Shown here: piece after piece, positions 36,199-63,812 of the stretch
How positions within the stretch are numbered: position 1 is the first letter of the stretch
Layout of the letters: each line of letters opens with the position of its first letter
Origin: an uncultured bacterium
GTDB taxonomy: Bacteria > Fidelibacterota > Marinisomatia > Marinisomatales > JACNKV01
DNA length: 64,000 nucleotides
Assembly (NCBI GenBank): GCA_964388155.1
Contig: CAYLYH010000002.1
Location: forward strand, 9,887 to 73,886
Direction: 5' to 3'
Notes under the pieces: model-generated
Told to the model about the DNA's origin: nothing
The model's database searches: none
Seen by the model: only the letters and a program-made list of their open reading frames with translations
Translations under genes and position numbers: made by a program

Positions 36199-39021
36199 TT
36201 AATACGCGTCTTCAACTTCTTCAATTATTTTATCATAAGTTATTCTTGCGCGATCGAATGCTTGTTTAGCATCTTGGATTTCTTCCGGACTGATTTGGTC
36301 TTTTTTCATATGCCAGCATTGATCCACTGAAGCACGGCACCATTCAGCGCTTTCTTTTACCCGAATGGGCTTATCCTCAATCATCACAAAAAATGGATTT
36401 GTATGGAGTGCTTGGTAAATGCGTAAAGCCACCCAACTTGATTGCTCTAACTTGGTGTTAAAATAAATATTTGTCCACTGCCCGTTGGCTGTTATTGTTT
36501 GTTTCTCAACAGCAATACCATTTACGATCAGCTCAACTTCTATATCCTGTAAATTTTCTAATCGGGCTCGTTCAACATGCCAATAGGGTTTTGTACTGTA
36601 ACTGCTGGTGGAAATACTTGCACCAATTTGGCTTTGTTCTTCGGGTAACAATGCTGACACCTTCGCCGAAATTGTTAAATCATCTCTTTTGGATAAATGA
36701 ATTTCACTTTCTGTATCGCCTAATTCTTGATCGTTAATTATAAAATCAATCACATGGGAACGCCCATCGGACACATACCCATTTCCATCCAAAATTCCAT
36801 TCATGTATTTTTCGTAAGTGAGTTCTCCGTCAATTTTAATATAGCTGCGGGCATCTCCAACCCGTTCATCATAAATGCAGGGGAAGTCCGTTTCACCGCT
36901 CAATCTGGGGCGAAAACCACAATTCAGTGTATGATACCACATATTCAACTCCCAAGGAAATGGTGTGTCACCAACGGAATAAAAATCAACCACGCCTTCT
37001 GTGACTGTGACGATATATTCATTGGCACCAATGTCATCCATTCTGGGTAAAACATAGTTTGGCAGATTTTCAGTAGCTTTAATAGGATCTAATCCCCAGC
37101 CCGAATGGGCGTATCCTGTGATAGCATTTTGACTTTTTGCCCATTTCAAGATTGGCAAATTCCAAGTGGGCCATTCATCAATAATTGTCGTGCCGGGATA
37201 ATCATCTTCATTAAGTCCAAGAAGAACAATATGCCCGGCGTGAGACGATGGAAATCCGGAAATTTCTACATTATAGCGCATGATGTGGTTATGGTCTGCA
37301 GCAGGATGGTCACGTCCGGAAAAGTGCTCTTTTTGAACATACCAGTTCGGTCCCCAGTTAAGCACGTTGGTTACCCGCAGATCTTCACCCAATTGCAGAC
37401 GCCATATTTCTTCCGGCGAAACACCTTCTTCAGGATTGGTGTAAAAAGCACATCCTGCGGCATGGATGTGAGAGTCTGAACTATAATAATCCATTTTTTG
37501 CATATCTACCCATCGATCCAATTGAAAGGATGTATGAATTGAATCTGATTGTTGTGACACAATCAATGATTTCGTTTTAGAGATATATTCAGGTCCCCGC
37601 GTATAAGTAATATTGTATTTGCCTGGCGGTAACATAACGTGTTCTCCATCACCACGGTATATTTGAGATTGAAAGTAGAAATCCGGGTAGTCGTCTAAAC
37701 GTGAAAGTCGGCGGGATGGGAGTGGGTACAATCCTTCCAGGTTTTCTGGATAATATTCATACTCTCGTTCAGCATGGAGACGATAATCGTCAGATCGCAA
37801 AATATCGTGATATTCGGTTTCTTCGTGGCGTTCGATGCCATCGGTTATGGTAAATGAAGCCAGAGTAGGTGAACCATCATCATCCTTCACATGAAATACA
37901 ACAGGGATAGCCGGTTGTGCATGAGCGTTGAGCCTAACCCGTGCAGGATCCAAATTCCCCGAGCCCCATAATAATTGCACATTTGCAGTACCGCCACCTT
38001 CAAAATATTCAATTGTAATAGCGTAGGATTTGCCTTTGGTCAAACTCACATCAGCCGTACGCAGACGCGGACCATGCAACCCCCAATTCGCCACAATCAA
38101 TTCATCATCAAGATATAATCTTGTTCCGTCATTACTTTTTACACCAATTTGATATTTTGCTGTTTTTGTTGGTGTAAGAAAACTGGTCCATCGCACGGAA
38201 AATTTTTCTGTTTCTATCTTATCAGATGGGGTACCGGCTCCCCAATCGAAATTGATTGTTTCATCCAACCGCGTCAAAGATGGCTCCCCGGAAAAATCTT
38301 TGTTTTGGAAATATTCACCTCTCAAACCAATGGCATCACTTTCTAAAGACGGCTTTAGAAAAATGGAATCAATGACGGTTATATTTTCATAATAATCTCC
38401 AATATAGAAATCAATATCTGCTTTTATGTAGCCTTCGTTCTTACAATAAACCTGTAAAATGACATACTCAACAGTATCCCCGGAAAGATTTGGTTTGAGT
38501 GGTGCGTTCCGGTAAAAATAAAGTTCTAGAAACCGTTCTTCCAACTCTGTTTGTGTGTAAAAATCATCAGGATGCATTTTTTCTTCAGTTGTAGAAATAT
38601 CAAATAATGGTTCCGAATTAGGACTACGCACTTCTAATCTTCCTGTAAATTTGGCTTTATTAAGAATCTTCACCAAATAGTTTGCCCAACCACTTTGAAC
38701 CAAAGGCTGGAAAGGTTTTCCTTGAGTTACGGACACTTTATGGTTTTCATTAATAGAAACCATAGCCAAAGCATATGGATCTAATATAGATTGAAGAAGT
38801 GAATCAGAATGCTGGGATAAATTATTTAGTTGGGTAATGACTTCATAAGGGAGTGGAGACCCCAAATATTCCATAGTTTCTATAATATTTGTGGAATGAT
38901 CAATAGAAATAATATTTTTTCCGTTGATGATAGGTAAAGTGCTGATTTTTGGTGGGGTGGAATTACATGATTGAAAGACCAAACAATAATTAATAAGAAT
39001 GAAAAGAATGATCTTTTTCAT
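36199..39021 (-). CDS. CehA/McbA-family metallohydrolase lipoprotein with internal PA14 domain
   Basis: Lipobox FQSC. PA14 (GLRGEYFQN...INFDWGAG...FSVRWT...SNDGTRLYLD...IEYFEGGG). PHP-like DSHIH, GYAHSGWG, SGETDFPC. Confidence 0.75.
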   Translation of the reverse strand: MKKIILFILINYCLVFQSCNSTPPKISTLPIINGKNIISIDHSTNIIETMEYLGSPLPYEVITQLNNLSQHSDSLLQSILDPYALAMVSINENHKVSVTQGKPFQPLVQSGWANYLVKILNKAKFTGRLEVRSPNSEPLFDISTTEEKMHPDDFYTQTELEERFLELYFYRNAPLKPNLSGDTVEYVILQVYCKNEGYIKADIDFYIGDYYENITVIDSIFLKPSLESDAIGLRGEYFQNKDFSGEPSLTRLDETINFDWGAGTPSDKIETEKFSVRWTSFLTPTKTAKYQIGVKSNDGTRLYLDDELIVANWGLHGPRLRTADVSLTKGKSYAITIEYFEGGGTANVQLLWGSGNLDPARVRLNAHAQPAIPVVFHVKDDDGSPTLASFTITDGIERHEETEYHDILRSDDYRLHAEREYEYYPENLEGLYPLPSRRLSRLDDYPDFYFQSQIYRGDGEHVMLPPGKYNITYTRGPEYISKTKSLIVSQQSDSIHTSFQLDRWVDMQKMDYYSSDSHIHAAGCAFYTNPEEGVSPEEIWRLQLGEDLRVTNVLNWGPNWYVQKEHFSGRDHPAADHNHIMRYNVEISGFPSSHAGHIVLLGLNEDDYPGTTIIDEWPTWNLPILKWAKSQNAITGYAHSGWGLDPIKATENLPNYVLPRMDDIGANEYIVTVTEGVVDFYSVGDTPFPWELNMWYHTLNCGFRPRLSGETDFPCIYDERVGDARSYIKIDGELTYEKYMNGILDGNGYVSDGRSHVIDFIINDQELGDTESEIHLSKRDDLTISAKVSALLPEEQSQIGASISTSSYSTKPYWHVERARLENLQDIEVELIVNGIAVEKQTITANGQWTNIYFNTKLEQSSWVALRIYQALHTNPFFVMIEDKPIRVKESAEWCRASVDQCWHMKKDQISPEEIQDAKQAFDRARITYDKIIEEVEDAY

Positions 39022-39027
39022 CCTACA

Positions 39028-40245
39028 TTACTCCAACTCATAAATATGAACATCGAATGGTTCATAATCTTCTGTTAAAATACCGTCTTTAATTAGAATT
39101 GTTCTATCCTCTTTAAGTATTTTCGCTTGTTCGAAATTTCTCAAATTCCCCAAGGTAATTCGTACCGGATTTTTATCTGAATTGACTGTGATCAAATAAT
39201 ATTTTTCATCACTATTCTTTGCCAGAATCTCCACACCGGTATCGATGGAATACCGTAATTCGTGATATGTTTTTTCAATGTCCAAATCAATAGAATGGGA
39301 TGACAAAATATATTGCATTTCAGCTAATTCTTTGGTGACACGATTCAAATCCTCCATGAATTGCGAAGGTTGGGGAGAATAAGGCATTCCCCAATAGTTG
39401 ATACCGTTAGCGCCATGAACAATGGCATTGAAAGCCATAAAACGGGATTGTTTATAAGTCGGATATAATACCATGTCCGAATTTATTTCTTGCTCTTTTT
39501 TTAGCATTTCCCATGCGAATCCTTGAAGCACCATAAACAAAGGTTTTGAATGATTAGTAACACGGTGCATTTTTTCTGCATATTCTCCAACCTGACTAAT
39601 GTACGGATTCAGCAAATCGCCTTGAAGTCCATCCGGATACAACGCGTAGGTAGGCGTTATACCATTGGGAATAACAGGATAAACATCACAAGCCACAATA
39701 TCCGTTGATTCATTATATTTCTGTAAAGTTGAAATAAGATTGACAGGACCGTGATTGGTGTAAATCAGATGATTCGTATCTTCCTGCTTGATTAAATTAT
39801 ATGTCTCAATCATTATTTCAGGTCGAATTCGAAGGTCTGGAGAATTCCATGTGAATGCCGGTTCATCAGCAATTTCCCAACAGAGTAAAGATGGGTGAGA
39901 TTTATAGGTTTGAATCAACTCTGAAATTCGTTCTTTACCTTTTACATTTGATGCTAATCCTGTTGAAATACGGGTATAAAGATTATTTTGATGCGCCACA
40001 TCAAGCTCTTTTTGATTTGCTGAAACGTGAATATAATTATATCCGTTTTTCGCTAATTCTTTGAATGGATGGTCACTTTTTGGAAGATGATAGGATCCAA
40101 TGATAAATGTACGTTTGCCATTGATAACCAACATGCCATCATTGTCCCAAGTAAATTTGAGATTGGGTCTACTATGGCTTTCACATCCCCAGAATAAAAA
40201 CAGAGCGATAGTGAAGAAAAATATTTGTCTTGAATATTTTTCCAT
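39028..40245 (-). CDS. Hypothetical lipoprotein, probable glycoside-hydrolase-like TIM barrel
   Basis: Lipobox FWGC. LLCWEIADEP, DIVACDVYP, FMVLQGF, AIVHGANGINYW. Confidence 0.6.
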   Translation of the reverse strand: MEKYSRQIFFFTIALFLFWGCESHSRPNLKFTWDNDGMLVINGKRTFIIGSYHLPKSDHPFKELAKNGYNYIHVSANQKELDVAHQNNLYTRISTGLASNVKGKERISELIQTYKSHPSLLCWEIADEPAFTWNSPDLRIRPEIMIETYNLIKQEDTNHLIYTNHGPVNLISTLQKYNESTDIVACDVYPVIPNGITPTYALYPDGLQGDLLNPYISQVGEYAEKMHRVTNHSKPLFMVLQGFAWEMLKKEQEINSDMVLYPTYKQSRFMAFNAIVHGANGINYWGMPYSPQPSQFMEDLNRVTKELAEMQYILSSHSIDLDIEKTYHELRYSIDTGVEILAKNSDEKYYLITVNSDKNPVRITLGNLRNFEQAKILKEDRTILIKDGILTEDYEPFDVHIYELE

Positions 40246-40249
40246 ATAA

Positions 40250-41305
40250 TTATTTAATCATTTTAGGGTTTATCACCACATGTTTTACCATTTTTCGATT
40301 CCATGTATAAACGATGTGGATCAAGTTATCTTCAGTTTGGATTATGGCAGGATATGAATATTCTTCTTCATCTGTTGTTTCCGGATTAGTCACTTTTTCC
40401 AGTTGAATGACTTCTTTCCAAGTTTTTCCATCTTTGGATACGGCTACAGATAATGGGACACGATCTCCCCAGTTTTTATTGGTGGGATTATAAACCAATA
40501 AATGCCTTCCGTCTTTTAATGTTAATCCATCAATACCGGAGTTAGGATTTGGAAGAGTGGTCGCTTTCATTTCACTCCAAGTGTAACCATTATCTTTTGA
40601 CCAAGATTCAGAAATAACTTCATTTTTGGTTCGATTTAATAATTGAATTGTTTTATTTGGATGAACCAAAATGGTGGGTTGAATTGCACCAAACTCAACA
40701 CCGTCATTCAAATCTCCGGAAGATTTCCATGTTTTTCCATTATCAATAGATCGCTCTATTTGAATTTTCCAACCATCGTGTTCGGTGCTTGTCCCGGATA
40801 ATATATCACCATTTGATAATTGGATTGGTTTGTTTTTTATAGGACCATAAATCCCGTCGGGCAATTGAATTGGGTTAGACCAGGTTAATCCATGATTCTT
40901 GGATGTAACAAACATTCCCCACCATTCTCTTGGGTTGGGACCTACTTTGTAAAACAGAGTTAAAGGTGAATCTTTGGGTTGGAATAAAACGGGGTTCCAG
41001 CATGGGAAACGTGATCCATCATCTTGAATGCCATTTACAACTTCGACGGGAGTTGACCAATTTTTATTACTTTTTCTCGATACCCAGATCCCTACATCTT
41101 TATTTTTTTCTCTGGTACCACCAAACCATGCTGCGATTAGATTGTTTCCAGATGATACAATAGTAGATGCATGGCATTCCGGCGTAAGAGCATCTTCCAT
41201 TTCATAAATAAATTCTTGTGATACAATTAATCGGTTTGTTACTTCTTTATTACTACAGGATGATAAAAAGAAAATACCGAATAAAACACTTATGATGATT
41301 TTCAT
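40250..41305 (-). CDS. BNR/Asp-box sialidase-like beta-propeller lipoprotein (BNR_2)
   Basis: Asp-boxes SKNHGLTW, SIDNGKTW, SKDNGYTW, SKDGKTW. CHASTI, NPNSGID, YSYPAI. ATG 41305 overlaps the upstream TGA. Lipobox LSSC. Confidence 0.85.
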   Translation of the reverse strand: MKIIISVLFGIFFLSSCSNKEVTNRLIVSQEFIYEMEDALTPECHASTIVSSGNNLIAAWFGGTREKNKDVGIWVSRKSNKNWSTPVEVVNGIQDDGSRFPCWNPVLFQPKDSPLTLFYKVGPNPREWWGMFVTSKNHGLTWSNPIQLPDGIYGPIKNKPIQLSNGDILSGTSTEHDGWKIQIERSIDNGKTWKSSGDLNDGVEFGAIQPTILVHPNKTIQLLNRTKNEVISESWSKDNGYTWSEMKATTLPNPNSGIDGLTLKDGRHLLVYNPTNKNWGDRVPLSVAVSKDGKTWKEVIQLEKVTNPETTDEEEYSYPAIIQTEDNLIHIVYTWNRKMVKHVVINPKMIK

Positions 41306-44300
41306 TTGACTTTTCCTTCTGTTATTTCCTCGATGCAATCCAGCATTTCATTTCTGAATTTGACCATATTTAATTCGTTGCTCACCAAATCGAAGTTTTC
41401 GCGTGATACACCTAATTTCATGGCTTGATATCCCGGGTCAACCAAATCAATTAAACCGGATTCTAATAATTGATTAATTTTTTCTTGTAATCCGCTATTC
41501 AAATTTTGGTTTTCAGCAGCGATATTTTTTAGGGCAGAAAGAATTCGATAATCTTCAATACCTTCTCTCACTGCTTCCCAACGTCGGCTGGTAACCGGTT
41601 TTGTCCTGCCGGGATATACAAGGTTATATTCAAACTTGATACGTCCCCATGGATTTTCGCTATTCGCATTGTAGCACCAATATCCAATTCCCGATGCACC
41701 GGAGCGAAGTGCCATCAATGCAGCAGTGCGAAATTCGTACATCAAATTGATATTCTTTATATTGGGTCCGATTGGCCTAGATGAAGTATAAGTACAATTA
41801 TATGACCATAAATGATCTCCGACATTTTGCATTACATCCATTTCCGGGGAATCTTCAGAAAGCCAATCAAAGGGCGGAACCCAAACATCAATAACGGTTC
41901 CCATCGCGTTGAACATTGGCAACTCACCACCACCGTCTTGATAGAGCATAATATCAGGATGATTTTCATGAACTATTTCACCAAATTGCACTAATTTATT
42001 AACGGCATTCCAACCGTGACCGCCCGGCTCATCGATGGGGTAAATAGCAAATTGATTAGTATCGTATCCTGAATTTTTCAGATGCCTTTTCAAAGATTTC
42101 ATATACTTTGAAAGATCTTTTTTGTATTTGGCAGAACCGAATTCTCCCTTAATGGCAGGGAATCCACCAATCAGTAAAAACACATTGTGCTCTTTAAATT
42201 GATTCGTGATTTTATCCAGTTCGGAAAAATCAAAATTTTTAATCTTATCATATCGGTTATAAGTAATTTTACCGTGTGGAATCCGAAATACATTGTTTCC
42301 ATGAGCAAGCAAATCACTTATTTCAGGTCCTATAGAAGGAGACCATGTACATAACCTGAAGTCTTCCGGAGGGCTCATGGTAAAGAGAAAAACCTCCATC
42401 ATAATCTCTACATGCGTTTCCGGTGGTGAAGCTGCCTGCGGAGCTGAAGATGCATTGACCACACCATCACCGTTCAGAGCCTGTAATATAAGATCGATTT
42501 TATATTTACCTGGAGAATTTTCGGTCACGATGTCTAACCATACTTCCCGGGCAGTAAGAGAGGGAATCGTTACAATATTTGATTCATCCAATTCCGGCAT
42601 TGCATCCCAAGATTCTTCTCCGATGGATGTGATCGTATTCACGGACCGTAATAAAGTAACAGAAATCCCATCTTTTGTATTTTCGGTATGCACGCGTACA
42701 TTCAATAATTGATCGGTAATATTAAACAACATAAGCGATACAGGTTCATGTTCATTCAAAACGGTTCGACGGTTTATTTCCACAGGATTAACAACCCTTT
42801 CCGGCAATTGCAGATGAACATCTTTACTCTGCCAGTGAGTCCCCTCAAAAGCAATCAAACTTGTTCCGTCCCCAAGTTGAGTAGCTTTTTCACATACTGT
42901 ACTAATTTGAAACGCACGTTTAGCCTTCCGGTTAAGAGATGATGTTTGTTCAAATATTTTCTGATGAGCTGATGCTGAATTACCCGGGACACTATTTTGG
43001 AGAATCTGTATTTTGTCAAATTGTGACTGAAGCAACAGAGCTTTATGCCGCAAGGCGTTTGCGGTAAGCGGAATGTTTTTTTCGCATTCATCGGCCGTTG
43101 AAGCTAGTATGCCAATGGCTTGCTGAATTAACGACCTATCGTTATGAAAGGGTATAACCGCAATTTCTTTTGAATCTGAAAATAGGATTTTTTCATTTCC
43201 ATCGATCAACTCCCATGTAAAGCTATAATCACCGGGCTGTGCGATTTCAATTGGAAGAAGAAGTTGTCCCTTTTTTCCAATGATAGTTGATGTTGCTGTA
43301 TATTGCGTCCCGTTAGGACCTATACAAATTCCGTTGGCAGATAGTGACGTTGTAGTCGGATATGGATTTATAACATTAAAAATAACCGGTTCCCCAACAA
43401 AAAGTCTATCCCACTCTAGATTTTGCGGAACCATGCGTAATTGATTGGATTGTTTTAGTCCAAACCAAGAGCCTGTATTACGAATATCCCCACGGTAGGA
43501 ACTCCAATGTCTGATTGTTTTATTGGACGCAGGTGTTCCAAAGCAATAAGCCATTCCTGCTTCTCCACCTGTTAGGGCGAATTCCAGATCATCAACACTG
43601 CCTGAAATATTTCCAAAGGCAGGAGTATTATTAATGGAACGTGAAGGTAGTTGATGGTCAAAGATAATTTTTCCATCATTGCTGAAAGCTAAAATATGCC
43701 CACGCTGTGTTGATAAAATAAATTCCATTTCTCCGTCGTTATTAATATCAAGGATTGCGCCGGGCGCCAGCGTACGTCCCTGCATATCGATCTTCCATAT
43801 AACAGACCCTTTCTCATCAAATCGATAAATCACGCCTTTTTGTGTAATTGCAAAAATATCTGCACGCCCATTCAAGTTAAAATCACCAATAGAGATAGAC
43901 GATGCGATAGGGGAATTTGTCGGATAATCCCAAATCGGATTTCCATTCTTATCTAGACAATAAACAACACCATCAGCAGATGCGACGATAATATAGGTTT
44001 TACCATCCGATGCTGAAAACATGACTGGCGATGAGGTTGACCACGATGAAGATGCTTCTCCGATTTTATAATTCCACAATGTAGCTGTTTTATGATTCAT
44101 TGCTGTGACAACGCCGTCATTCGTAGAAAACACAATCTCCATTAAACCATCATTGTTAAGATCACCAACTGAAGGGCTCACCGGCGTTGCATCCAAAGTT
44201 GTATGATGATTCACGTTCCCTGTTAAAGCATCAAGAATCCATATAACTCCGCTTTGGTCTCCTTGGATAACTTCAATCTTTCCGTCATTGTTTAGATCAG

Positions 44301-53664: not shown

Positions 53665-54672
53665 ATGGAAATTATAAGATATAATATTTCACTTTCTACT
53701 AAAAATAACGGCTTTCTAATTAAAAGCAGAAATAAAGATAACAATTTGAGCACCACTTTCCATCTCCCGTCCGGGGTGTGGCCTGTCATGCTGACTCCAT
53801 TCGATCAGAATAAAAAGATCGACTGGGACGTATTGCCTTCTTTAGTCGAACACTATATTAAATCCGGAGCAGATGGACTCTTTGCTGTCTGCGGCTCAAG
53901 TGAAATGTTTGAACTATCATGGTCCGAACGTCTAATGCTGACAGAACACATTATCAAGATTGTCGATAAGAGATTACCGGTGATTGTTAGCGGCATTTTT
54001 GGGGATAATATTATTCAGCAATCTGAACACGTACATGAAATGTACGGAGTTGGTGCGAATGCAATCATATTACTGGTTAATCAGCTTGCAGGGGAAAAAG
54101 ATTCTGAGGATATCTGGATACAAAATGCCGAAGAATTATTATCCAAAACAGATGATATACCGTTAGGATTGTATGAATGCCCTTCTCCGTATCATCGACT
54201 GATTTCACCTGAATTACTAAAATGGACAAGTAGTACAAACCGATTTTATTGGATAAAAGAAACTTCTGAAAATATCGACAGTCTCAGAAATAAAATTCAT
54301 ACTGTTTCCGATTCTCGATTTCACATCTTTAATGCCGATTCCAGAATTCAGCTTGATGCTCTCCTTACCGGCGCCAAGGGTTATTGTGGAATAGCAACAA
54401 ATTATTACTCTGATCTTATAAATTGGTTAAATAACAATCACGCATCTAAACAAAAACTGGCAAAAGGTATCCAACAGTTTATGAATAAAACGCACGCAGT
54501 TATTAATCATAAATACTTATCTTCTGCAAAATATTATGCGAAAATATCCGGCGTTCCGATCAGAACAACATGCCGCTCCACGAATGAAATACTCACACAA
54601 TCAGATATTGAGCAACTAGATAATTTGAAAAACCAACACGAACATTGGCAACAAATATTAAACTTAAACTAA
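53665..54672 (+). CDS. Dihydrodipicolinate-synthase/N-acetylneuraminate-lyase (class I aldolase) family protein
   Basis: GVWPVMLTPF, DGLFAVCGSSEMFELS, Tyr in LYECPSPY, Schiff-base Lys in WIKETS. True start may be TTG 53746. Confidence 0.85.
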   Translation: MEIIRYNISLSTKNNGFLIKSRNKDNNLSTTFHLPSGVWPVMLTPFDQNKKIDWDVLPSLVEHYIKSGADGLFAVCGSSEMFELSWSERLMLTEHIIKIVDKRLPVIVSGIFGDNIIQQSEHVHEMYGVGANAIILLVNQLAGEKDSEDIWIQNAEELLSKTDDIPLGLYECPSPYHRLISPELLKWTSSTNRFYWIKETSENIDSLRNKIHTVSDSRFHIFNADSRIQLDALLTGAKGYCGIATNYYSDLINWLNNNHASKQKLAKGIQQFMNKTHAVINHKYLSSAKYYAKISGVPIRTTCRSTNEILTQSDIEQLDNLKNQHEHWQQILNLN

Positions 54673-56240: not shown

Positions 56241-58142
56241 ATGCTAGAAAAACAACAAGTCGAATCAATACTAAGGAATATCCGTAGTGTTAAAATTTCC
56301 GTATATGGCGATTTTTGTCTGGATGCTTACTGGTTCATGGATCCGCGCGGCTCAGAAATATCAGTGGAAACTGGTTTAATGGCAGAAGCAGTCACCAGAC
56401 AAAAATATTCTCTGGGCGGTGCCGGTAATATCGTTGCCAATTTAGCTGCACTAAATCCGGCGGAAATTCAATCGATCGGTGTAATCGGGGATGATATATT
56501 CGGTCGCGAGCTTTTGCAGATATTGCAGAGATTAGGTGTAAAAACTTCTGGACTGACCATACAAAAGGATGACTTTGACACTGTTGTCTTCAGTAAACGA
56601 TATTTGCGAGGAGAAGAACAACCCCGTATTGACTTTGGTTTTTTCAATCAACGTTCTAAAGAAACAGATACAATTCTACTTAATTCATTTAAATTGGCAC
56701 TAGAATCTTCGGATGTGCTTATCCTAAATCAGCAAGTCCCCGGAAGCATTACAAATCCTCATTTCATTGATAAACTTAACCAACTAATTGCTGAATATCC
56801 CGACAAACTTGTATTGCTGGACTCTCGTCACTACTCCGATAATTTCAGCAACGTTTTTCTAAAAATAAATCAAGTTGAAGCTGCAATTCTGAACAACAGA
56901 AATGCCAATCCGGATGATACGTTTTCTTCAGCAGACTTAAAAGTTTTTGCTTCTGAACTCCACAAAATTTACCACAGACCCATATTTATCAGTCGTGGAG
57001 AGCACGGTCTGATTGGAACGGATAACAACGTTGAGTTTGAGGTATCAGGAATTCAGCTTGTAAATCAAGTGGATCCAGTCGGAGCTGGAGATACGATGCT
57101 CAGTGCCCTTGCATGTTGTCTGGGAGCAGGAGAATCCTCAGCTACTGCCGCAGAATTTGCAAATTATGCTTCGGCGGTAACAGTTCAGAAGTTGTTTCAA
57201 ACAGGGACTGCCTCCGGTGAAGAAATTCTGGATTTAGTTAATGAAGCTACATTCATTTATAATCCGGAATTGGCCGAAATCCCAGGCAAAGCCGAATATT
57301 TAACCGGTTCGCAAATTGAAATCTGTGTAGACACTAGGGACCTCCCCAGCGGTAATATTACACATGCTGTCTTTGATCACGACGGAACAATCAGTGTACT
57401 CAGAGAAGGTTGGGAAACAATCATGGAGCCCATGATGGTTAAGGCTATTCTTGGAGATGAGTATCATTCCGCAAATATATCATTCCGCAGTAAAGTAGCT
57501 GCCCGTGTCCGTAGTTTTATCGATAATACTACTGGAATCCAAACCATTCTCCAAATGGATGGTTTAGTTGATATCATCAAAGAATTTGGTTTTGTACCAA
57601 AAAATAAAATTCTTGATAAATTCGAATACAAAGCAATTTACAACGATGCTCTAATGAAGTCCGTAAATGAAAGAATTACAAAATTGAAAAATGGGCAAAT
57701 GACTCCCGTAGATTTTTCAGTACCGGGCAGTATTACATTCCTAAAAGATTTGCGCGAGCGCGGAATAACGCTATATCTCGCCAGCGGAACCGATGTGGAC
57801 GACGTCATTAATGAAGCGGAAATTATGGGGTATGCAGATCTGTTTAACGGCGGGATCTATGGAGCAGTCGGTGATGTAAGTAAATACTCCAAGAAAAAAG
57901 TTCTGCAGGAGATCATGGCAAAAAACAAATTGAATGGCCCTGAGCTAATCACATTTGGAGACGGTCCTGTAGAAATACGTGAGTGTGTGAAAAATAAAGG
58001 AATTGCCGTTGGAATTGCCAGTGATGAAAAACATCCGGGACAACTTGAAAAAAACAAACGTTGCCGATTGATAAAAGCCGGTGCAAAATTGATTGCCAGA
58101 GATTTTCTAGAATCAGAAATATTAATAAATTTATTAACATAA
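56241..58142 (+). CDS. HldE/RfaE-type PfkB sugar kinase fused to a HAD-superfamily phosphatase
   Basis: Kinase: [42 protein letters not shown]: motif I VFDHDGT, motif II LASGT, motif IV FGDGPVE. No adenylyltransferase domain. Confidence 0.85.
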
Positions 58143-58152
58143 GAGGTATAAA

Positions 58153-59100
58153 ATGAGAATTATTGTAACCGGCGGTGCCGGAATGATTGGCAGTAATATC
58201 GTCAAAGGATTGAACAAACAGGGATATGAAAATATTATTGTCGTTGATAATCTCACAGATGGAAAGAAATTCCATAATATTGCAGATTGTCAAATATCGG
58301 ATTATATCGACAAAGATGCTTTTATAAAATTAATCGTCGATGAGAATGAACTTGGTGAGATTAAAGCAGTTTTTCACGAAGGTGCCTGTTCCGTTACGAC
58401 AGAATGGAACGGTAAATACATGCTGAATAATAATTTTACCTACTCCAAGGAACTCTTGCACTACTGTCTGTGGCGAAATATCCCATTTTATTATGCTTCA
58501 TCGGCGGCAACATACGGAAATAGCACCACTTTTAAAGAGGAACCGAAATTTGAACTCCCGATCAATGTCTACGGATATTCCAAATACCTCTTCGATCAGT
58601 ATATTCGACACCGTGAAACCAATTTCGAAAGCCAGGTAGTTGGGTTTCGATACTTTAACGTGTACGGTCCGCGTGAGCAGCATAAAGGTAGTATGGCTAG
58701 TGTCGCTTTTCATTTAAATAATCAAATCGAAAAAGGCGAGAATCCAAAACTTTTTACCGGTAGTGACGGATATGCAGATGGAGAGCAGCGTCGGGATTTT
58801 ATTTACGTGGGAGATACCGTTGACGTAAATCTCTGGATGCTTGAACATCCTGAAGTATCAGGGATCTTTAATATCGGTACAGGGAGAAGCCAAACCTTCA
58901 ATGAGGTCGCTCAGGCAGTCACCGATTTTCACGGAAAAGGGCAAATTGAGTACATTCCCTTCCCTGATCATTTAAAAGACAGTTATCAAAGTTTCACCGA
59001 AGCTGATATTTCTAAATTACGGAAAGCAGGATACGATAAGCCATTCAAATCCGTGCAAGATGGCGTCGCCGAATATATGAATTGGCTGCACAGATCGTAA
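58153..59100 (+). CDS. hldD: ADP-L-glycero-D-manno-heptose 6-epimerase
   Basis: [76 protein letters not shown]. Confidence 0.93.
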
Positions 59101-59132
59101 TTCTTAACTCCAAGCCAGTAAAGGTGATTTCT

Positions 59133-61673
59133 ATGAATAGCAAAACTCTTCACATATTTCTTCTTTCTTTTATACTAATTGTAGCTTCTTGTTACACTCC
59201 AATCGGCCAACCTACTGAGCAATGGAAAGACACGATTGATGGGAAAGTTGAAGTTATTCTGAACCAAATGACGTTGGAAGAAAAAATCGATCTCTTGGGG
59301 GGAGAAGGATTTAAAACCTCTAAAAACGAACGTCTTGGCATTCCTGAATTAGTTATGACCGACGGTCCGCTCGGTCCAAACTCAAACGGACTTTCAACCA
59401 ATTATTCATCAATGATTAATCTTGCTGCTAGTTTTGACACTCATTTGATGCGAAGGGTTGCCATTAATATCGGACAGGAGACCAGAATCAAAGACCGCAA
59501 TATGCTTTTGGGACCTTGCTTGAATATCGCTCGAGCACCTCATGCAGGACGAACATTTGAAGGTTTTGGCGAAGACCCATATCTTGTTTCAAGAATGGCT
59601 GTAGAATTTGTAAAAGGCGTTGAGAGCCAGGGTGTGGCAACGTGTACTAAACATTTTGTGGCCAATAATCAAGAATGGAACCGCTTTGATGTGGATGCCC
59701 GCATTAGTGAGCGAGCTTTACACGAAATATATTTCCCGGCGTTCAGAGCCGCTGTCATCGAAGCAGATGGATCAACAATCATGGCAGCCTATAACCAAAT
59801 TCTAGGAGATTATAGTACGGAGAGTCACTATACGCTTACTGATATTCTGAAAAATGAGTGGGGATTCACCGGGGTGGCAGTATCAGACTGGGGTGGCGCA
59901 CGAACAACGGTAAAAATGGCTAATTCCGGTCTTGATCTGGAAATGCCGACAGGAATTCATTACAATGAAAAATTAATTAAAGCTATCAAAGACGGATCAG
60001 TCACTCAAAATACAGTTGATGACAAAGTACGTCGAATTTTACGAGTTATGATGAAAAAGGGATTATTCAACCAACCTAAAAATTTATTTGCAGAGGATAC
60101 ATCTAATACTCCGGAACGCCGTGCACTGGCATTAGAAACCGCTCAAAAAAGTATTGTCCTGCTTAGGAATGGAGGTGATTTTCTTCCACTAGATGCAGCA
60201 AAGATCAAATCGATCGCTATTATCGGGCCCAATGGCAACGTAGCTCAAATGCACGGCGGAGGAAGCGGAAGTTTGACGGGTCATTATGGTATATCACCTT
60301 TGGAAGGAATAAGTAACAAAGTCGGAGATTCCATCTCTGTTAAGTTTGCTCGCGGTGTTGTTGAAGAGAGCAAAGACCTGCCAATTGCTGGTGCGGAACA
60401 TTATTTTCTCCAGGACGGAAGTCCCGGAATCTATGCTGAGTATTTTAATAATCGAGAGCAGAAAGGCGAGCCGGTATATACCTGCATAGAAACTGACATC
60501 GATTTTGATTGGGGGTTCGGTGGAGACAAAGGTGGTCCCGGCTCTCCGAAGCCAGGTGTCGTTAATCTGGAAAAATGGTCGGCTCGCTGGACCGGTAAGT
60601 TCGCCTCTCCCGGTGATGGTTGGTATGAATTTGGACTCAGATCTGATAACGGTGTTCGTATGTATATCGACGGGAAAAAGGTTCTGGATTACTGGGTAGA
60701 TTCCAAACCCGGACAATTTAAAATCATCCGGTATAAATTCGAAGCTGATAAACTCTATGATCTACAGGTGGATTTCTATGAGAATATCGGTAGTTGCCGT
60801 TGCCGCTTAGGATTTGCTCCGTTTGATTACGGTAACAAATTGGATGAAGCTGTCGAAGTCGCCACAAAGGCTGACATTACTATTCTCTGCCTTGGGTTAA
60901 ATATGTTCATGGAGGGGGAAGCCGTTGATCGGGATGAACTGGATTTACCAGTAGATCAATTAGCCCTATTGGATGCTATTACGGCTGTTAATCAAAATAC
61001 AATTGTGGTGTTAAACAACGCCACGCCGATCCTGATGAACGATTGGCTGGATAAAGTTCCGGCTGTTGTAGATGCCCTGTATCCGGGACAGGAAGGCGGG
61101 AATGCATTGGCTGATATACTTTTCGGGGATGTAAATCCTTCCGGACGACTTCCATTGACTTTTCCGCAAAAATGGGAAGACACACCGGTTAAAGATACAT
61201 ATCCGGGTGTAAAGGCTTTTGCCGAATACAAAGAAGGAATTTTTGTCGGATACCGGCATTATGATAAATACAACATAGAGCCGGAATTCCCATTCGGTCA
61301 CGGACTGTCTTACACTACATTTGAGTATAGCAATATAGAAATTGATAATATTCGTACAAACCCCGGTGGTCAAATGTATATCGTTTCAGTAACTGTAGAA
61401 AACACTGGTGAAGTATTCGGCGAAGAAGTTGTCCAACTGTATATCAAGGATGTCAAGTCAAGTGTGGAACGTGAGTCTAAGGCGTTGAAAGGATTTAAAC
61501 GAATTGCTTTGATACCGGGCGAGTCCAAAACCGTTTCGCTGGAAATAAAGTCCGATGATTTGAGCTTTTTCCATCCTGAAAAAAAGAAATGGATTGTTGA
61601 GCCGGGAGAATTTGAAGTAATGATAGGCAGCTCCTCACGGGATATTCGTCTTACGGAAATAGTCACTTACTAA
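59133..61673 (+). CDS. GH3 beta-glucosidase-family lipoprotein with inserted PA14 domain and C-terminal FnIII
   Basis: Lipobox VASC. GRTFEGFGEDP, KHFVANNQE, nucleophile VSDWG, PA14 insert (EYFNN...DFDWG...SDNGVRMYIDG), FPFGHGLSYTTFEY. Start ATG 59133; the ORF extends to 59082. Confidence 0.92.
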   Translation: MNSKTLHIFLLSFILIVASCYTPIGQPTEQWKDTIDGKVEVILNQMTLEEKIDLLGGEGFKTSKNERLGIPELVMTDGPLGPNSNGLSTNYSSMINLAASFDTHLMRRVAINIGQETRIKDRNMLLGPCLNIARAPHAGRTFEGFGEDPYLVSRMAVEFVKGVESQGVATCTKHFVANNQEWNRFDVDARISERALHEIYFPAFRAAVIEADGSTIMAAYNQILGDYSTESHYTLTDILKNEWGFTGVAVSDWGGARTTVKMANSGLDLEMPTGIHYNEKLIKAIKDGSVTQNTVDDKVRRILRVMMKKGLFNQPKNLFAEDTSNTPERRALALETAQKSIVLLRNGGDFLPLDAAKIKSIAIIGPNGNVAQMHGGGSGSLTGHYGISPLEGISNKVGDSISVKFARGVVEESKDLPIAGAEHYFLQDGSPGIYAEYFNNREQKGEPVYTCIETDIDFDWGFGGDKGGPGSPKPGVVNLEKWSARWTGKFASPGDGWYEFGLRSDNGVRMYIDGKKVLDYWVDSKPGQFKIIRYKFEADKLYDLQVDFYENIGSCRCRLGFAPFDYGNKLDEAVEVATKADITILCLGLNMFMEGEAVDRDELDLPVDQLALLDAITAVNQNTIVVLNNATPILMNDWLDKVPAVVDALYPGQEGGNALADILFGDVNPSGRLPLTFPQKWEDTPVKDTYPGVKAFAEYKEGIFVGYRHYDKYNIEPEFPFGHGLSYTTFEYSNIEIDNIRTNPGGQMYIVSVTVENTGEVFGEEVVQLYIKDVKSSVERESKALKGFKRIALIPGESKTVSLEIKSDDLSFFHPEKKKWIVEPGEFEVMIGSSSRDIRLTEIVTY

Positions 61674-61703
61674 AATTCGATTGATGGAAAATATTTAACT
61701 ACT

Positions 61704-63812
61704 ATGATGTTCTCTTATCAATTTATTCTTGGCGGAGTAGTTTTTGCAGTAGGCATGATTATTGCATACCGACAGGGATATTTCAGTTTCGCCGAAAATG
61801 GTTTACGGAACTTGCTGTTTGTCATGGTTCCGCTACTGTTCTATTTTGTACTTCAGGGATATTTGCAATTCGGGAGTTTCTCTTCCTCTCCTTCATCTTC
61901 TTTCAGCGGAACAATCACAGGAAAACGGATGATGGGTGCTCCCGTTGATTATGGGATTATGATATTTTATTTCATGATAATCCTTACAATCGGAACTTAT
62001 TTCGGAAGAAGACAAAAAACCGTCAAAGACTTCTTTTTCGGCGGACAACGATTCTCATGGTGGCTGATCACATTCAGTTTAATTGCGACCACCGTTGGTT
62101 CCTATAGCTTCGTAAAATACAGCAGGGTCGCTTTTTCCTATGGATTAGGCAGCAGCCAAACTTACCTTAACGACTGGATATGGCTACCACTTTTGCTTTT
62201 CGGCTGGCTTCCGATTCTATATTTTTCAAGGATAACTTCGATCCCCGAATATTTTGAACGCCGGTTTGACCGCACGATCAGAAAATGGGTAACAGCATTT
62301 GTCCTGATATATCTGATCGGCTATGTTGGAGTAAATTTGTTCACAATGGGAAAAGTTCTTAATATTCTTTTAGGTTGGCCCATTCTTACCGCAGCAATTG
62401 TCGTAGCGACAATCTCTGCTATTTATGTTACTGCCGGCGGACAAACCAGCGTGATTATGACCGATTTGTTTCAGGGTTTAATGCTCTTGGCAACCGGAGT
62501 GATGATCCTGTTTCTCGGCATTCATTATCTCGGCGGACTAGATTCCTTTTGGCAAAACCTTCCCCGTCCGCATAAATTGGCTTTCCCTAACTTTAACGAA
62601 GACCCAGCCTTCCCTTCCGTCGGTATATTCTGGCAGGACGGCATTGCCAATACGGCTATGTTCTATTTTCTTAATCAGGGAGTGCTTATGCGCTTTATGT
62701 CTACAAAGTCTCTCAATGATGGGCGGAAGGCTATTTTTACAGTGGTATTGGTATTGATGCCGATTGCTGCTTGTGTAGTAGCTTCCGGAGGATGGGTAGC
62801 AAAAGCACTTGTTCATGCTGGTGTCCTACCGGGGAATATCCGCGCGGACGAAGCCTTTTTTATCGCTTCTGATTTTCTGAGTCGACCGGGCATATTTGGG
62901 TTAATCTTAGCCACGATGACAGCTGCCCTAATGTCTACCGTGGATACCTTGATTACGGCTGTGGCTGCCATTGTCGTCAATGATATTTACAAACCGCTGT
63001 TCAGACCCAATGCAAATGAAAAGCAGTTACTGAAAATGGCAAGAATCAGTTCCGTTTCAGTCACATTATTAGGAATATCACTCGTTCCGGTCTTCATGTC
63101 TTTTAAGACAATCTATGCCGCTCACGGAGCATTCACTGCCGCCGTAACTCCCCCTTTGGTAATTGCACTACTCTTTAGTGTATTTTGGAAACGATTTACA
63201 CAAAAGGCTGCACTATATACACTTGTTGGCGGAATGGGAGCTATCGTCTTTTCTCTTTTTGTCCCAGAAGTGATTATCCCGTTTGCTCATGGAGTTCCAA
63301 TGCAGGAAACCGGAGATGGACTTTTCGACGGAATGAAACAGTTTAAGTTCATGCGAGCTTTTTACGGACTGTCTGCCAGTGCAATAATCGGTTTTACCGT
63401 CACACTATTTACAAAACCAGAATCTTTTAAACGACAACGAGGATTGGTTTGGGGAACAGTTAAAGATGCCATTATAAATTACAAAGGCTCTCCTGGTAAG
63501 GAATCTGGCACCAAAACAAGTTTAGCGTTACCTCTAATCGCCAATCGCCCTGCGAAGATTACAGGAACAGGGAATCTCCCTCTTGTTAATATCTCCCGTA
63601 CGTTGGCTGAAACACTGGAAGCTATTCTCGGTGATTTACTTTACATTAGTGATAGACGATGGTGGCTGGGCGGATTACATTCTACGCATGCCGTGGTCGG
63701 GAGTGTATTAAATAATTCTGAAAAAATAATTGAATTAGACAGAGAGACAAGTCAACTGGTTATCCTTAAAAATAGACTCACTCAAGAAGTGTTGGTGGAG
63801 AGACTATATTAA
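61704..63812 (+). CDS. Sodium:solute symporter with extra N-terminal two-TM segment and soluble C-terminal domain
   Basis: The SSS core starts near DYGIMIFYF (FFFGGQRFSW, EYFERRF, GGQTSVIMTDLFQG, ALMSTVDTLIT). About 80 extra N-terminal aa and about 110 extra C-terminal aa (GDLLYISDRRWWLGGLHSTHA). Confidence 0.85.
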   Translation: MMFSYQFILGGVVFAVGMIIAYRQGYFSFAENGLRNLLFVMVPLLFYFVLQGYLQFGSFSSSPSSSFSGTITGKRMMGAPVDYGIMIFYFMIILTIGTYFGRRQKTVKDFFFGGQRFSWWLITFSLIATTVGSYSFVKYSRVAFSYGLGSSQTYLNDWIWLPLLLFGWLPILYFSRITSIPEYFERRFDRTIRKWVTAFVLIYLIGYVGVNLFTMGKVLNILLGWPILTAAIVVATISAIYVTAGGQTSVIMTDLFQGLMLLATGVMILFLGIHYLGGLDSFWQNLPRPHKLAFPNFNEDPAFPSVGIFWQDGIANTAMFYFLNQGVLMRFMSTKSLNDGRKAIFTVVLVLMPIAACVVASGGWVAKALVHAGVLPGNIRADEAFFIASDFLSRPGIFGLILATMTAALMSTVDTLITAVAAIVVNDIYKPLFRPNANEKQLLKMARISSVSVTLLGISLVPVFMSFKTIYAAHGAFTAAVTPPLVIALLFSVFWKRFTQKAALYTLVGGMGAIVFSLFVPEVIIPFAHGVPMQETGDGLFDGMKQFKFMRAFYGLSASAIIGFTVTLFTKPESFKRQRGLVWGTVKDAIINYKGSPGKESGTKTSLALPLIANRPAKITGTGNLPLVNISRTLAETLEAILGDLLYISDRRWWLGGLHSTHAVVGSVLNNSEKIIELDRETSQLVILKNRLTQEVLVERLY

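Follow-up and report, generated by a model that had tools for sequence, protein, structure and literature searches.

The 64,000 nt stretch of DNA analysed here (the window), from a marine member of the Marinimicrobia (SAR406-type), appears to contain a horizontally assembled, accessory glycan-catabolic island with a module whose most likely substrates are glycero-manno-heptose and, alongside it, a 2-keto-3-deoxy (ulosonic) acid, a best explanation to which we assign, as a whole, a probability of about 0.45. The minus strand of the island encodes two exported BNR_2 proteins, a GH123-like protein, a PA14 protein and two Reg_prop propeller proteins, as well as a cytoplasmic Ams1-like GH38 enzyme. 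The plus strand contains an operon of six genes with gaps of ~7–30 nt, encoding a NanA/DapA-family aldolase, a SiaT-like symporter, a kinase-HAD fusion (KinHAD), HldD, a GH3 protein and an SSF symporter. Inspection of the N-termini predicted a cytoplasmic location for GH38, KinHAD, HldD and the aldolase, with the remaining hydrolases being exported. A nagB gene, within the window, and a GntR/UTRA regulator are located upstream.

The original prediction had read this region as a system for degradation and salvage of lipopolysaccharide (LPS) cores, and profile searches recovered the gene families on which it was built, including the EEP (endonuclease/exonuclease/phosphatase) and GH2 proteins. 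The exception was the GDPD gene predicted at the edge, as the sole GDPD-like gene located (C2:73807–74799) lies almost wholly past the window end. The island edge is formed on the plus strand by the EEP family protein (28831–29700; PF03372, E 1.6e-17), of which an 85% identical ortholog adjoins GH38 in L102-type Marinimicrobia, followed by an SSF sodium:solute symporter (29707–31335; PF00474, E 4.5e-42), a lipoprotein resembling GH2 LacZ-type beta-galactosidases that also carries CHB_HEX_C and PA14 domains (31337–35347; Glyco_hydro_2_C, E 2.6e-103, further GH2 domains and a lipoprotein-type N-terminus) and a 278 aa lipoprotein with an N-terminal Cys lipobox, no Pfam match and no assigned family (35355–36191). 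The first two minus-strand genes encode a 940 aa exported protein with a signal-type N-terminus and PA14 as sole recognised domain (36199–39021; Pfam E 1e-26), and a 405 aa lipoprotein with a GH2 TIM-barrel match below threshold (39028–40245; PF02836, 19.8 bits versus a cut-off of 21).

By its sequence, the fourth gene of the operon (58153–59100, plus strand) encodes a genuine HldD, the ADP-glycero-manno-heptose 6-epimerase, of the gammaproteobacterial type. It scored above both equivalog cut-offs (NF008360, 515.4 versus 452 bits; TIGR02197, 448 versus 274.6 bits) and is 64% identical to E. coli K-12 HldD, with S116, Y140, K144, K178 and D210 all kept in the alignment. The gene is present as a single copy in the genome, and its closest relatives outside the Marinimicrobia are from Gammaproteobacteria (67–70% identity). 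HldD acts on C6 of heptose, and a hexose is not a substrate.

The preceding gene (56241–58142, plus strand) encodes KinHAD, in which PfkB and HAD matches delineate an HldA-like PfkB kinase (residues ~1–345) fused to a large-capped HAD phosphotransferase domain (residues ~370–633). The kinase domain falls far below the HldA equivalog cut-off (TIGR02198, 122–124 versus 345 bits), while the canonical HldA of the same genome, at C25, scores 355 bits. The top seven Foldseek matches of the kinase fold were all to B. cenocepacia HldA (E 8e-20 to 6e-18), with ribokinase at 1e-15. Both domains have invariant catalytic motifs, with the kinase GG, NxxE and GAGD motifs present (alignment A1). The HAD domain matches PF00702/HAD_2 alone and carries an insert of ~125 residues separating motifs I and II. 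It lacks a characterised relative, with none found in NCBIfam or PDB. It does not qualify as GmhB (a cap-less HAD-IIIA enzyme, TIGR00213), given its large cap and the lack of a TIGR00213 match. The genome also holds canonical HldA, HldC, GmhA and a GmhB-like protein (at C21), dispersed among housekeeping genes. The D-arabinose pathway (FucI/FGGY) was not found in this genome, a point against the catabolic reading, and a search for transcript data also came back empty.

The housekeeping heptose pathway of the order lacks HldD. Among its 31 genomes, HldA was detected in 27, GT9 and GmhB-like proteins in 30 each and HldC nearly everywhere, with HldD present in just three, each time inside this cluster, and one of these three loci (G025) is a relic in decay that adjoins GH38 and SiaT-like fragments. 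At the level of the phylum (401 genomes), KinHAD was present in seven genomes, and HldD or an HldD-like protein was found in all seven, at ≤4 kb distance in six, versus 27 of the 394 other genomes (Fisher p = 1.7e-8, with genomes treated as unrelated and phylogeny uncorrected; there are ~4 independent lineages). The co-location of aldolase, KinHAD and HldD exceeds chance: this core was found again in several Marinimicrobia lineages, and the aldolase-KinHAD-HldD(-HldC) combination, with either GH38 or Reg_prop plus BNR_2, was kept where KinHAD is 57–59% and the aldolase 45% identical. Two further independent arrangements join HldC, HldD(-like) and GmhA-like proteins to KinHAD, SiaT-like, aldolase and GH38 genes. 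The operon of G134 has the order SiaT-like, aldolase, HldC, HldD, split kinase, split HAD (KinHAD being represented by two separate genes), GH38 and GmhA-like, and the cluster of G093 the order HldC-like, HldD-like, AGE, GSU2086, GmhA-like and KinHAD.

The predicted co-occurrence of the kinase-HAD gene and hldD was thus found within the Marinimicrobia and did not extend to other phyla, where none of 80 KinHAD loci had hldD within 10 kb and where true HldD is absent from 9 of the 15 KinHAD genomes. In these phyla KinHAD is usually accompanied by an AGE-family epimerase and a member of the GSU2086 family, with a GmhA-like gene next to KinHAD in 10 of the 80 loci. The heptose part of the LPS-core hypothesis nevertheless has real comparative support at the sequence level, because HldD is otherwise missing from the order and because HldC and GmhA-like genes join KinHAD elsewhere, and the prediction that kinase-HAD and HldD belong to a catabolic cluster handling glycero-manno-heptose gained in strength from both patterns. 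This support does not extend to the direction of the module (catabolic or salvage, as against biosynthetic), to the LPS core as source, or to the putative activities of GH38 on heptosides, of the BNR proteins in Kdo hydrolysis and of the aldolase in Kdo cleavage, all of which are more tentative.

The aldolase gene (53665–54672, plus strand) encodes a class I (Schiff-base) enzyme of the DapA/NanA family (Pfam DHDPS, 105 bits), and its true start probably lies downstream of 53665. Its scores are far under the equivalog cut-offs (NCBIfam dapA, 81.7 versus 206 bits; nanA, TIGR00683, 25.7 versus 382 bits), and while the Schiff-base K165 and Y137 are kept, S, R and I are found in place of NanA residues D191, E192 and S208, with CGSSEMF at the position of the NanA GSTGE motif. 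The sub-cut-off scores and the replaced Neu5Ac-binding residues rule out both DapA and canonical NanA. The adjacent symporter (54683–56233, plus strand) has Proteus mirabilis SiaT as best PDB match (5NV9, E 6.7e-72; 246 bits, with the next best at 173). Of the SiaT residues compared, it keeps R135, the Arg that binds the substrate carboxylate, S60 and T63, with T58, Q82 and F78 changed to S, T and R. Next to KinHAD, or to the split-kinase form of it, KSB1, Calditrichaceae, Flavilitoribacter and G134 have orthologs with ~62–66% identity, and in Calditrichaceae and Flavilitoribacter DHDPS and SiaT-like genes together adjoin KinHAD. The symporter probably carries a carboxylated (ulosonic) sugar, and the pair plausibly serves an ulosonic acid other than Neu5Ac.

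The GH38 protein (48340–51366, minus strand) is an Ams1/MAN2C1-like member of the alpha-mannosidase family without signal peptide, and contains all four GH38 Pfam domains (N, middle, C and C2; E 1e-87, 3.5e-27, 3e-57 and 3e-18). With 545 bits to Ams1 in PDB it is strongly similar to true alpha-mannosidases, and is a candidate alpha-heptosidase or alpha-mannosidase. It adjoins the module in G001, in the G025 relic and in L102/L108/G249, with another GH38 subfamily within the G134 operon. The two BNR_2 (sialidase-fold) proteins, a lipoprotein (paralog 1, 40250–41338; Pfam 282.5 bits) and an exported protein (paralog 2, 44756–45916; 165 bits), are also encoded on the minus strand, and match PDB sialidases weakly (E 1e-4 to 1e-6), with paralog 1 also weakly matching BT1020. 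In an alignment of four sequences, three Arg, one Tyr, one Glu and one Asp were invariant across both paralog types, as judged from sequence positions alone. Paralog 2 is the one conserved with the module, as its orthologs are found in G001 (81%), beside aldolase-KinHAD-HldD in L105/L106 (66%) and beside KinHAD in Flavilitoribacter (42%).

Two proteins with a 'DTSSDE' motif had been proposed as heptosidases, but these are Reg_prop double beta-propellers with no match to any known glycosidase fold, and are similar to the sensor domain that hybrid two-component systems (HTCS) of Bacteroides have in the periplasm (4A2L, 3V9F). Both genes are on the minus strand, with one encoding an exported, HTCS-sensor-like protein without the kinase part (45938–48292; Pfam Reg_prop) that has orthologs in G001 (78%) and L105 (66%), and the other a 31% identical lipoprotein paralog (51380–53644; Pfam, and PDB 4A2L/3V9F HTCS sensor at E 1e-16), which has a 41% ortholog in Dyadobacter, encoded by a gene overlapping the stop of KinHAD. 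The GH123-type catalytic domain is fused to an FG-GAP/PQQ-like beta-propeller (41302–44688, minus strand; GH123_cat, 51.6 bits versus a cut-off of 23.1; FG-GAP_3). The last two operon genes, on the plus strand, encode a GH3 plus PA14 lipoprotein of the beta-glucosidase/beta-xylosidase type (59082–61673; Pfam and NCBIfam) and the SSF sodium:solute symporter (61704–63812; PF00474, E 5.6e-48), with 83% and 85% orthologs in G001, respectively. The predicted conservation of heptose genes with hydrolases applied to GH38 and BNR_2 paralog 2, but not to the GH2, GH123-like, PA14 and weak GH2-like proteins, which showed no conservation with the heptose module elsewhere, and GH3 was found again with it in G001 and L106 only. 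GH2, GH3 and GH123-like proteins are peripheral to the module; these are beta-specific families with no obvious task on LPS cores. The combination expected of an LPS-core locus, with heptose genes, hydrolases and genes for ulosonic-acid uptake and cleavage together, was observed within the Marinimicrobia.

In the pathway that we propose, an external glycan would be attacked by the exported BNR_2 (two), Reg_prop (two), GH3, GH2 and GH123-like hydrolases or binding proteins, the pieces would be imported by the symporters, and cytoplasmic processing would involve GH38, the NanA-family aldolase, KinHAD and HldD, plus HldC and GmhA of the housekeeping set, which have their genes elsewhere. The HldA-like domain may phosphorylate the anomeric O1 of heptose, after which the capped HAD domain, being beta-phosphoglucomutase- or phosphatase-like, could shift or remove phosphate between O1 and O7. 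GmhA would link heptose-7-P to sedoheptulose-7-P, and HldC and HldD would interconvert ADP-L,D-heptose and ADP-D,D-heptose, making foreign L,D-heptose usable in a cell with an LPS pathway that lacks HldD. The acid sugar would be taken up by the SiaT-like importer and cleaved by the aldolase. LPS/LOS inner cores (Hep-Kdo) are the glycans in which heptose and an ulosonic acid are known to be combined, making envelope debris of other Gram-negatives the most likely substrate.

The proposal may be extended to a first catabolic or salvage route for the LPS inner core, with exported sialidase-fold Kdo-ases freeing fragments, the SiaT-like carrier importing Kdo or Hep-Kdo, GH38 as the first alpha-heptosidase, the NanA-family enzyme as Kdo aldolase (EC 4.1.2.23) and KinHAD uniting an anomeric heptokinase and a beta-phosphoheptomutase in one protein. 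HldC and HldD would then run 'backwards', from L,D- to D,D-heptose, with GmhA leading into the pentose phosphate pathway or to reuse in the cell's own LPS. Taken jointly, these assignments are doubtful.

The same genes could instead form a biosynthetic variant, with KinHAD as a fused, non-orthologous substitute for HldA and GmhB that works with GmhA, HldC and HldD to supply ADP-L,D-heptose to LPS of the cell itself or to another surface glycan, and is merely carried along with catabolic genes. The enzyme types (kinase, HAD, HldC, HldD and GmhA-like) are indeed those of known biosynthesis, and such a role is possible in G134, G093 and G098, because the KinHAD-type kinase is the sole HldA-like kinase in these genomes, with canonical HldA not found. 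In the order of the window, however, the canonical pathway is already present, which would make KinHAD redundant. The AGE-GSU2086-KinHAD trio lies beside housekeeping genes (e.g. thrS, infC and pheS) in many Planctomycetota loci, but KinHAD and GmhA-like genes of Bacteroidota and KSB1 are surrounded by genes for sugar utilisation, and neither a nucleotidyltransferase nor HldD is close by. Similarly, a second GT9 gene is present in G000 and G001 and absent from G002 and G003, but this additional GT9 type, of 371 aa, is also present in genomes that lack HldD. As the genes share an operon with the importer and aldolase, and with a glycosidase, and as the decay of the module in G025 is expected for a dispensable trait, we consider the biosynthetic variant unlikely.

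Degradation of an ordinary sialo/manno-glycan (N-glycan-like, algal or EPS) is likewise improbable, despite BNR_2, GH2, GH3, GH123-like, GH38, SiaT-like and NanA-like proteins making up a classic complex-glycan set. The sialidase-like, beta-galactosidase, beta-hexosaminidase-like and alpha-mannosidase enzymes would strip the glycan, the importer and lyase would handle a nonulosonic acid (KDN or a bacterial sialic-acid analogue), and KinHAD would phosphorylate a manno-configured product, in line with the upstream nagB and GntR/UTRA regulator and the AGE-family (GlcNAc/mannose) 2-epimerase and YdjC-type deacetylase genes often adjoining KinHAD. This would make HldD a passenger, in spite of its specificity for heptose C6, and leaves the joining of HldD, HldC(-like) and GmhA-like genes to KinHAD, aldolase and GH38 in three arrangements unexplained, next to the lack of Neu5Ac-binding residues in the aldolase. 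Finally, the single-copy state of hldD and its absence near KinHAD in all 80 loci of other phyla would fit chance placement of a housekeeping hldD and an unrelated kinase beside glycosidase genes, without a functional tie. This initial reading of hldD is contradicted by the phyletic pattern, as 28 of the 31 genomes lack HldD despite HldA, GmhB-like and GT9, and KinHAD and HldD are together in 7/7 genomes, in an adjacency surviving deep divergence and rearranged flanks, making chance a very remote prospect.

Nearly all Gram-negative bacteria make heptose and Kdo, and LPS cores represent a very large organic carbon pool in sea, soil and gut. If true, combined heptose and ulosonic-acid salvage would close a gap in our picture of how carbon from bacterial necromass is cycled, add new activities for GH38, a HAD subfamily and a NanA-like aldolase, represent recruitment of biosynthetic HldC, HldD and GmhA into catabolism, and provide tools to make or label heptose phosphates and ADP-heptose (innate-immune agonists). 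To our knowledge, the gene for Kdo aldolase is still unassigned. In the literature we did not find a description of any pathway for the salvage or catabolism of heptose, and according to a 2026 paper no heptose salvage pathway has been defined to date (PMC13417296). The recurring pairing of importer and aldolase with heptose enzymes may therefore represent the first route by which heptose is consumed or recycled. The KinHAD cassette is also present in cultured Dyadobacter, Flavilitoribacter and Cerina strains, which opens the idea to bench testing.

The locus can be compared with several known systems. Like sialic acid catabolic clusters (GH33, SiaT or NanT, NanA, and NanK/NanE or AGE plus kinase), it combines exported sialidase-fold proteins with adjacent SiaT-like and NanA-family Schiff-base aldolase genes and has nagB in the window, but the Neu5Ac-binding residues are missing from the aldolase, the matches of the BNR proteins to known sialidases are weak, and heptose enzymes replace the ManNAc enzymes, with no NanK or NanE in the window. 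In the KdoH1/KdoH2 Kdo hydrolases found in Francisella, Helicobacter and Legionella, the sialidase-like KdoH2 removes the outer Kdo from LPS of the same cell (PMC3573668). This provides a precedent for a sialidase fold acting on an LPS ulosonic acid as proposed for BNR_2, although KdoH remodels own LPS and requires a membrane partner. We know of no catabolic Kdo-ase that has been described, nor of a GH38 enzyme shown to cleave heptosides. With cytosolic GH38 enzymes (yeast Ams1, human MAN2C1, Streptococcus GH38 and E. coli MngB), the window enzyme shares the full domain set, the cytoplasmic site, the similarity to Ams1 and a role after oligosaccharide import, but it is tied to heptose-nucleotide genes, as is the different subfamily of G134. 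Compared to the AGE/GSU2086-partnered KinHAD loci, the window locus lacks GSU2086 and has a horizontally acquired HldD and the SiaT-like/aldolase pair instead. Finally, it shares true HldD and an HldA-nearest kinase with the biosynthesis of ADP-L-glycero-beta-D-manno-heptose (GmhA, HldA/HldE, GmhB, HldC and HldD), with related loci adding HldC and GmhA-like proteins to give five enzyme types, but the kinase scores 122 versus 345 bits and has as fusion partner a large-capped HAD that is no relative of the cap-less GmhB, and the canonical set is encoded separately. The genes share an operon with importer, aldolase and glycosidases rather than with waa genes, and the core operon thereby combines importer and aldolase with enzyme types (HldA-like and HldD) that are known from LPS heptose synthesis only.

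The region at 36199–63812 consists of two arms, one on each strand. On the minus strand, in order from 36199, the gene products are a PA14 protein, a weakly GH2-TIM-like lipoprotein, a BNR_2 protein (362 aa), a fusion of an FG-GAP propeller with a GH123_cat domain, a second BNR_2 protein (386 aa), a Reg_prop protein (784 aa), a GH38 protein (1008 aa) and another Reg_prop protein (754 aa). The plus-strand operon, which extends to 63812 with intergenic gaps of only approximately 7–30 nt, begins with the gene of a DHDPS-family aldolase and continues with those of an SSF symporter, an HldA-like PfkB kinase fused to a large-capped HAD domain (KinHAD, 56241–58142), HldD (58153–59100), a GH3+PA14 protein and a second SSF symporter. 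Genes for an EEP protein, a further SSF symporter and a LacZ-type GH2 enzyme are located immediately upstream of the region. Judged by their N-termini, the GH38 protein, aldolase, KinHAD and HldD are cytoplasmic; signal or lipoprotein leaders mark all remaining hydrolases and the two Reg_prop proteins as exported. The original prediction, which read this region as an LPS-core (heptose/Kdo) degradation and salvage system, named the gene families correctly except on two points: the 'DTSSDE' proteins turn out to be double beta-propellers that resemble the sensor part of hybrid two-component systems from Bacteroides, and the only GDPD-like gene found, placed there at the edge of the island, lies almost entirely past the window end. 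The source genome (2.3 Mb, 93.5% complete), in which the window occupies C2:9887–73886, has Candidatus Marinimicrobia MAGs as its closest named relatives, and a search of DNA runs traced the operon to marine or seawater metagenomes.

The surroundings of the island contain further envelope-related genes. Two TonB-dependent receptors (7309–10521 and 12647–15700) are each followed by a protein of approximately 710 aa without Pfam match (5147–7306 and 10531–12657), and these two may belong to an unrecognised family of SusD-like partners. Between these receptors and the glycan island, 15822–22982 encodes a DacB-type D-Ala-D-Ala carboxypeptidase, two LdcA-type LD-carboxypeptidases, an amino-acid permease and nagB, a set that would fit the use of peptidoglycan fragments. 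Past the window end, the island runs on to the dcw cell-division cluster with a GDPD-motif lipoprotein, an acetyltransferase-like gene (50% identity to a counterpart adjoining the module in comparison locus L105), a fourth SSF symporter and a YdjC-like lipoprotein (36% identity to a member of a Dyadobacter operon) at C2:73807–80511 of the same contig. Together, and as context only, the DacB, LdcA and nagB genes and the GDPD lipoprotein would be in keeping with a diet of envelope debris from bacteria. A second island of the genome (contig C23, approximately 6.7–38 kb) encodes another GH38 protein (27% identical), a PhoPQ-related protein, a GH2-like gene and a DUF3748/PD40 protein with 58% identity to one encoded in the Dyadobacter KinHAD operon.

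By score (NF008360, 515 bits against a cut-off of 452), identity (64% to E. coli K-12 HldD) and retention of the catalytic residues S116, Y140, K144, K178 and D210, the window protein is classified as a genuine HldD. Its closest relatives outside the Marinimicrobia are gammaproteobacterial (67–70%; Motiliproteus, Celerinatantimonas and Halopseudomonas), which points to horizontal acquisition from Gammaproteobacteria into Marinimicrobia. The kinase domain of KinHAD reached 122 bits against the HldA cut-off of 345, with the HldA-specific N-terminal motifs present. In a whole-protein fold search with the AlphaFold model (pLDDT 82), which is dominated by the kinase domain, the best seven PDB neighbours were all B. 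cenocepacia HldA (E 8e-20 to 6e-18, versus 1e-15 for ribokinase). In the HAD domain the DxDGT, SGTD, K and GDGxxE motifs are all intact, and the cap is an insert of approximately 125 residues; sequence searches of this domain gave nothing significant in PDB or NCBIfam, and GmhB was rejected as its identity by score and by residues.

Of the NanA residues, the aldolase has retained the Schiff-base Lys and the Tyr but lacks the Neu5Ac-binding D191, E192 and S208; scores and residues led us to reject an identity as NanA. The adjoining symporter is clearly SiaT-like (5NV9, 246 bits), with R135, S60 and T63 of SiaT conserved and Q82 and F78 changed, all positions with assigned roles in the SiaT structure. 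The GH38 protein is strongly Ams1/MAN2C1-like (545 bits) and looks like a true mannosidase. Both BNR proteins are distant from solved sialidases, with three Arg, one Tyr, one Glu and one Asp invariant. The Reg_prop proteins (45938–48292 and 51380–53644) are similar to the periplasmic sensor of the Bacteroides hybrid systems (4A2L, 3V9F) without the kinase or regulator part; their role may be glycan binding, or they may form a new family of hydrolases. In Dyadobacter (locus L092, 11926–14172), an ortholog with 41% identity overlaps the KinHAD stop codon, followed by a YdjC-like protein, a further Reg_prop-like protein and a DUF3748/PD40 protein.

Since hldD is a single-copy gene, and the canonical HldA (355 bits, C25), HldC (C5), GmhA (C24) and a GmhB-like protein (C21) are dispersed over other contigs among housekeeping genes, hldD was initially expected to be a housekeeping gene placed beside the glycosidases by chance. 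This was rejected, as hldD travels with KinHAD and is missing from 28 of the 31 genomes of the order, which have HldA, GmhB-like and GT9 genes. The profile of the order (HldA 27/31, GT9 heptosyltransferases 30/31, GmhB-like 30/31, but HldD 3/31) indicates that its members build heptose-containing LPS without HldD, presumably with D-glycero-D-manno-heptose (D,D-heptose) or by means of an unrecognised epimerase, and HldD is an accessory gene travelling with this cluster. Besides the window genome, HldD is carried by a congener (G001), which retains the aldolase, SiaT-like, KinHAD, HldD, GH3 and SSF genes plus BNR_2 (386-aa type), Reg_prop and GH38, and by G025 from another family of the order. 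The latter has a decaying copy of the module (contig C9; L100 2241–3759 and 13592–14315), in which the SiaT-like gene (76–82% identical) is frameshifted, hldD is reduced to its C-terminal half (76%) and GH38 to a fragment, and KinHAD is absent. A second GT9 heptosyltransferase-like gene (371 aa) is present in the window genome (C54:8443–9090) and its congener (C45:9577–10224), the genus members with KinHAD and HldD, and absent from G002 and G003; the link is weak, as the 371-aa type also occurs in other families without HldD.

Among 401 genomes of the phylum, full-length KinHAD was found in seven and HldD in 34. All seven KinHAD genomes have an HldD or HldD-like gene, within 4 kb in six of them (Fisher p = 1.7e-8, uncorrected for phylogeny, with approximately four independent lineages). 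Abundant, more distant Marinimicrobia contigs encode KinHAD (57–59% identity to the window protein), aldolase (45%) and HldD (75%) in two arrangements, either with GH38 divergent from aldolase-KinHAD-HldD and an HldC gene convergent downstream, or with Reg_prop and BNR_2 upstream. The predicted co-occurrence of the kinase-HAD/HldD pair with hydrolases is conserved in Marinimicrobia. The genome G134 (C175; L127 1–8844) has a co-directional cluster of eight genes, encoding a SiaT-like symporter (66%), aldolase, HldC, HldD (57% to E. coli), a standalone kinase (366 aa; 34% identity to the KinHAD kinase and 25% to HldA), an adjacent standalone HAD protein (309 aa; 31% to the HAD part of KinHAD), a cytoplasmic GH38 from another subfamily and, last, a GmhA-like SIS protein. 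This kinase and HAD are a Rosetta-stone pair for the window fusion, and the existence of fused and split forms indicates that the two activities work together. A cluster in G093 combines HldC-like, a different HldD-like SDR (34%), AGE, GSU2086, GmhA-like and KinHAD genes. The KinHAD family is linked with enzymes acting on heptose phosphates and heptose nucleotides, and in Marinimicrobia this set is also linked with GH38 and the putative ulosonic-acid uptake and cleavage pair; these recurring clusters support the original prediction in part, by lending comparative evidence to its heptose link.

Within 10 kb of KinHAD, hldD was found in none of the best 80 loci of other phyla (Planctomycetota, Bacteroidota, Calditrichota and KSB1), making the KinHAD-HldD pairing specific to Marinimicrobia; before the profile of the order was drawn up, this had looked consistent with a chance placement of hldD. 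At these 80 loci, KinHAD is preceded by an AGE-family epimerase in 52 and by GSU2086, a family with a deoxyhypusine-synthase/ornithine-cyclodeaminase-like Rossmann fold, in 57 (for example L014 2007–4331, L010 7669–9995 and L122 7164–9509), and a GmhA-like gene adjoins it in ten. GSU2086 is absent from the window genome and the Marinimicrobia loci with HldD. Beside KinHAD the two are almost complementary, with both (HldD-like in this case) only in G093, and they may fill the same epimerase step. An aldolase and/or SiaT-like gene accompanies KinHAD in Calditrichaceae, KSB1 and Flavilitoribacter. At one Calditrichaceae locus (L038 2308–11155), FucI and an FGGY kinase are encoded immediately before the aldolase, SiaT-like, GATase and KinHAD genes, with no FucA nearby; FucI is an L-fucose/D-arabinose isomerase, and D-arabinose is the expected product of Kdo aldol cleavage.

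The known chemistry of these families allows a coherent route to be inferred. The HldA-type kinase would place phosphate on the anomeric O1 of the heptose, and the capped HAD, of the beta-phosphoglucomutase/phosphatase kind, would shift phosphate between O1 and O7 or cleave it off. GmhA would interconvert heptose-7-P and sedoheptulose-7-P, and the reversible HldC and HldD would connect beta-heptose-1-P, ADP-L,D-heptose and ADP-D,D-heptose. For D,D-heptose the kinase, HAD and GmhA would suffice, which is the set of the Bacteroidota and KSB1 loci; L-glycero-D-manno-heptose (L,D-heptose) would also require HldC and HldD, matching the set in Marinimicrobia, where the cell's own pathway is without HldD. 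The product could enter the pentose phosphate pathway or be reused for LPS. Glycero-manno-heptose and ulosonic acid occur together essentially in LPS/LOS inner cores, and LPS-derived material therefore ranks first as candidate heptose source.

Our preferred, tentative reading, at a probability of roughly 0.45, is that the island serves catabolism or salvage of heptose (plus ulosonic acid) from external bacterial glycans. Against it stand the mannosidase-like GH38, the beta-specific GH2, GH3 and GH123-like enzymes, which are poorly conserved with the module, the lack of D-arabinose genes (FucI/FGGY homologs) in the window genome, and a search of RNA runs that found none containing the operon. 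The island could instead perform ordinary degradation of sialo/manno-glycans with a non-heptose role for KinHAD, to which the mannosidase-like GH38 is congenial; this is unlikely, and would have to accommodate the ties of KinHAD to heptose enzymes in several lineages. We consider it similarly improbable that the KinHAD-type set is a biosynthetic variant: G134, G093 and G098 are without canonical HldA, so that the set could simply be biosynthetic there; the window genome has both. Chance co-location, the early expectation for hldD, has very little probability left.

Full-text literature searches gave no description of a heptosidase, a heptose catabolic or salvage pathway, heptose in Marinimicrobia or LPS-degrading PULs. 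For sialidase-like Kdo hydrolases, the only known role is to remodel the LPS of the cell itself (PMC3573668). The locus is a catabolic glycan island of a known kind, and its candidate heptose-processing module is both new and recurrent.
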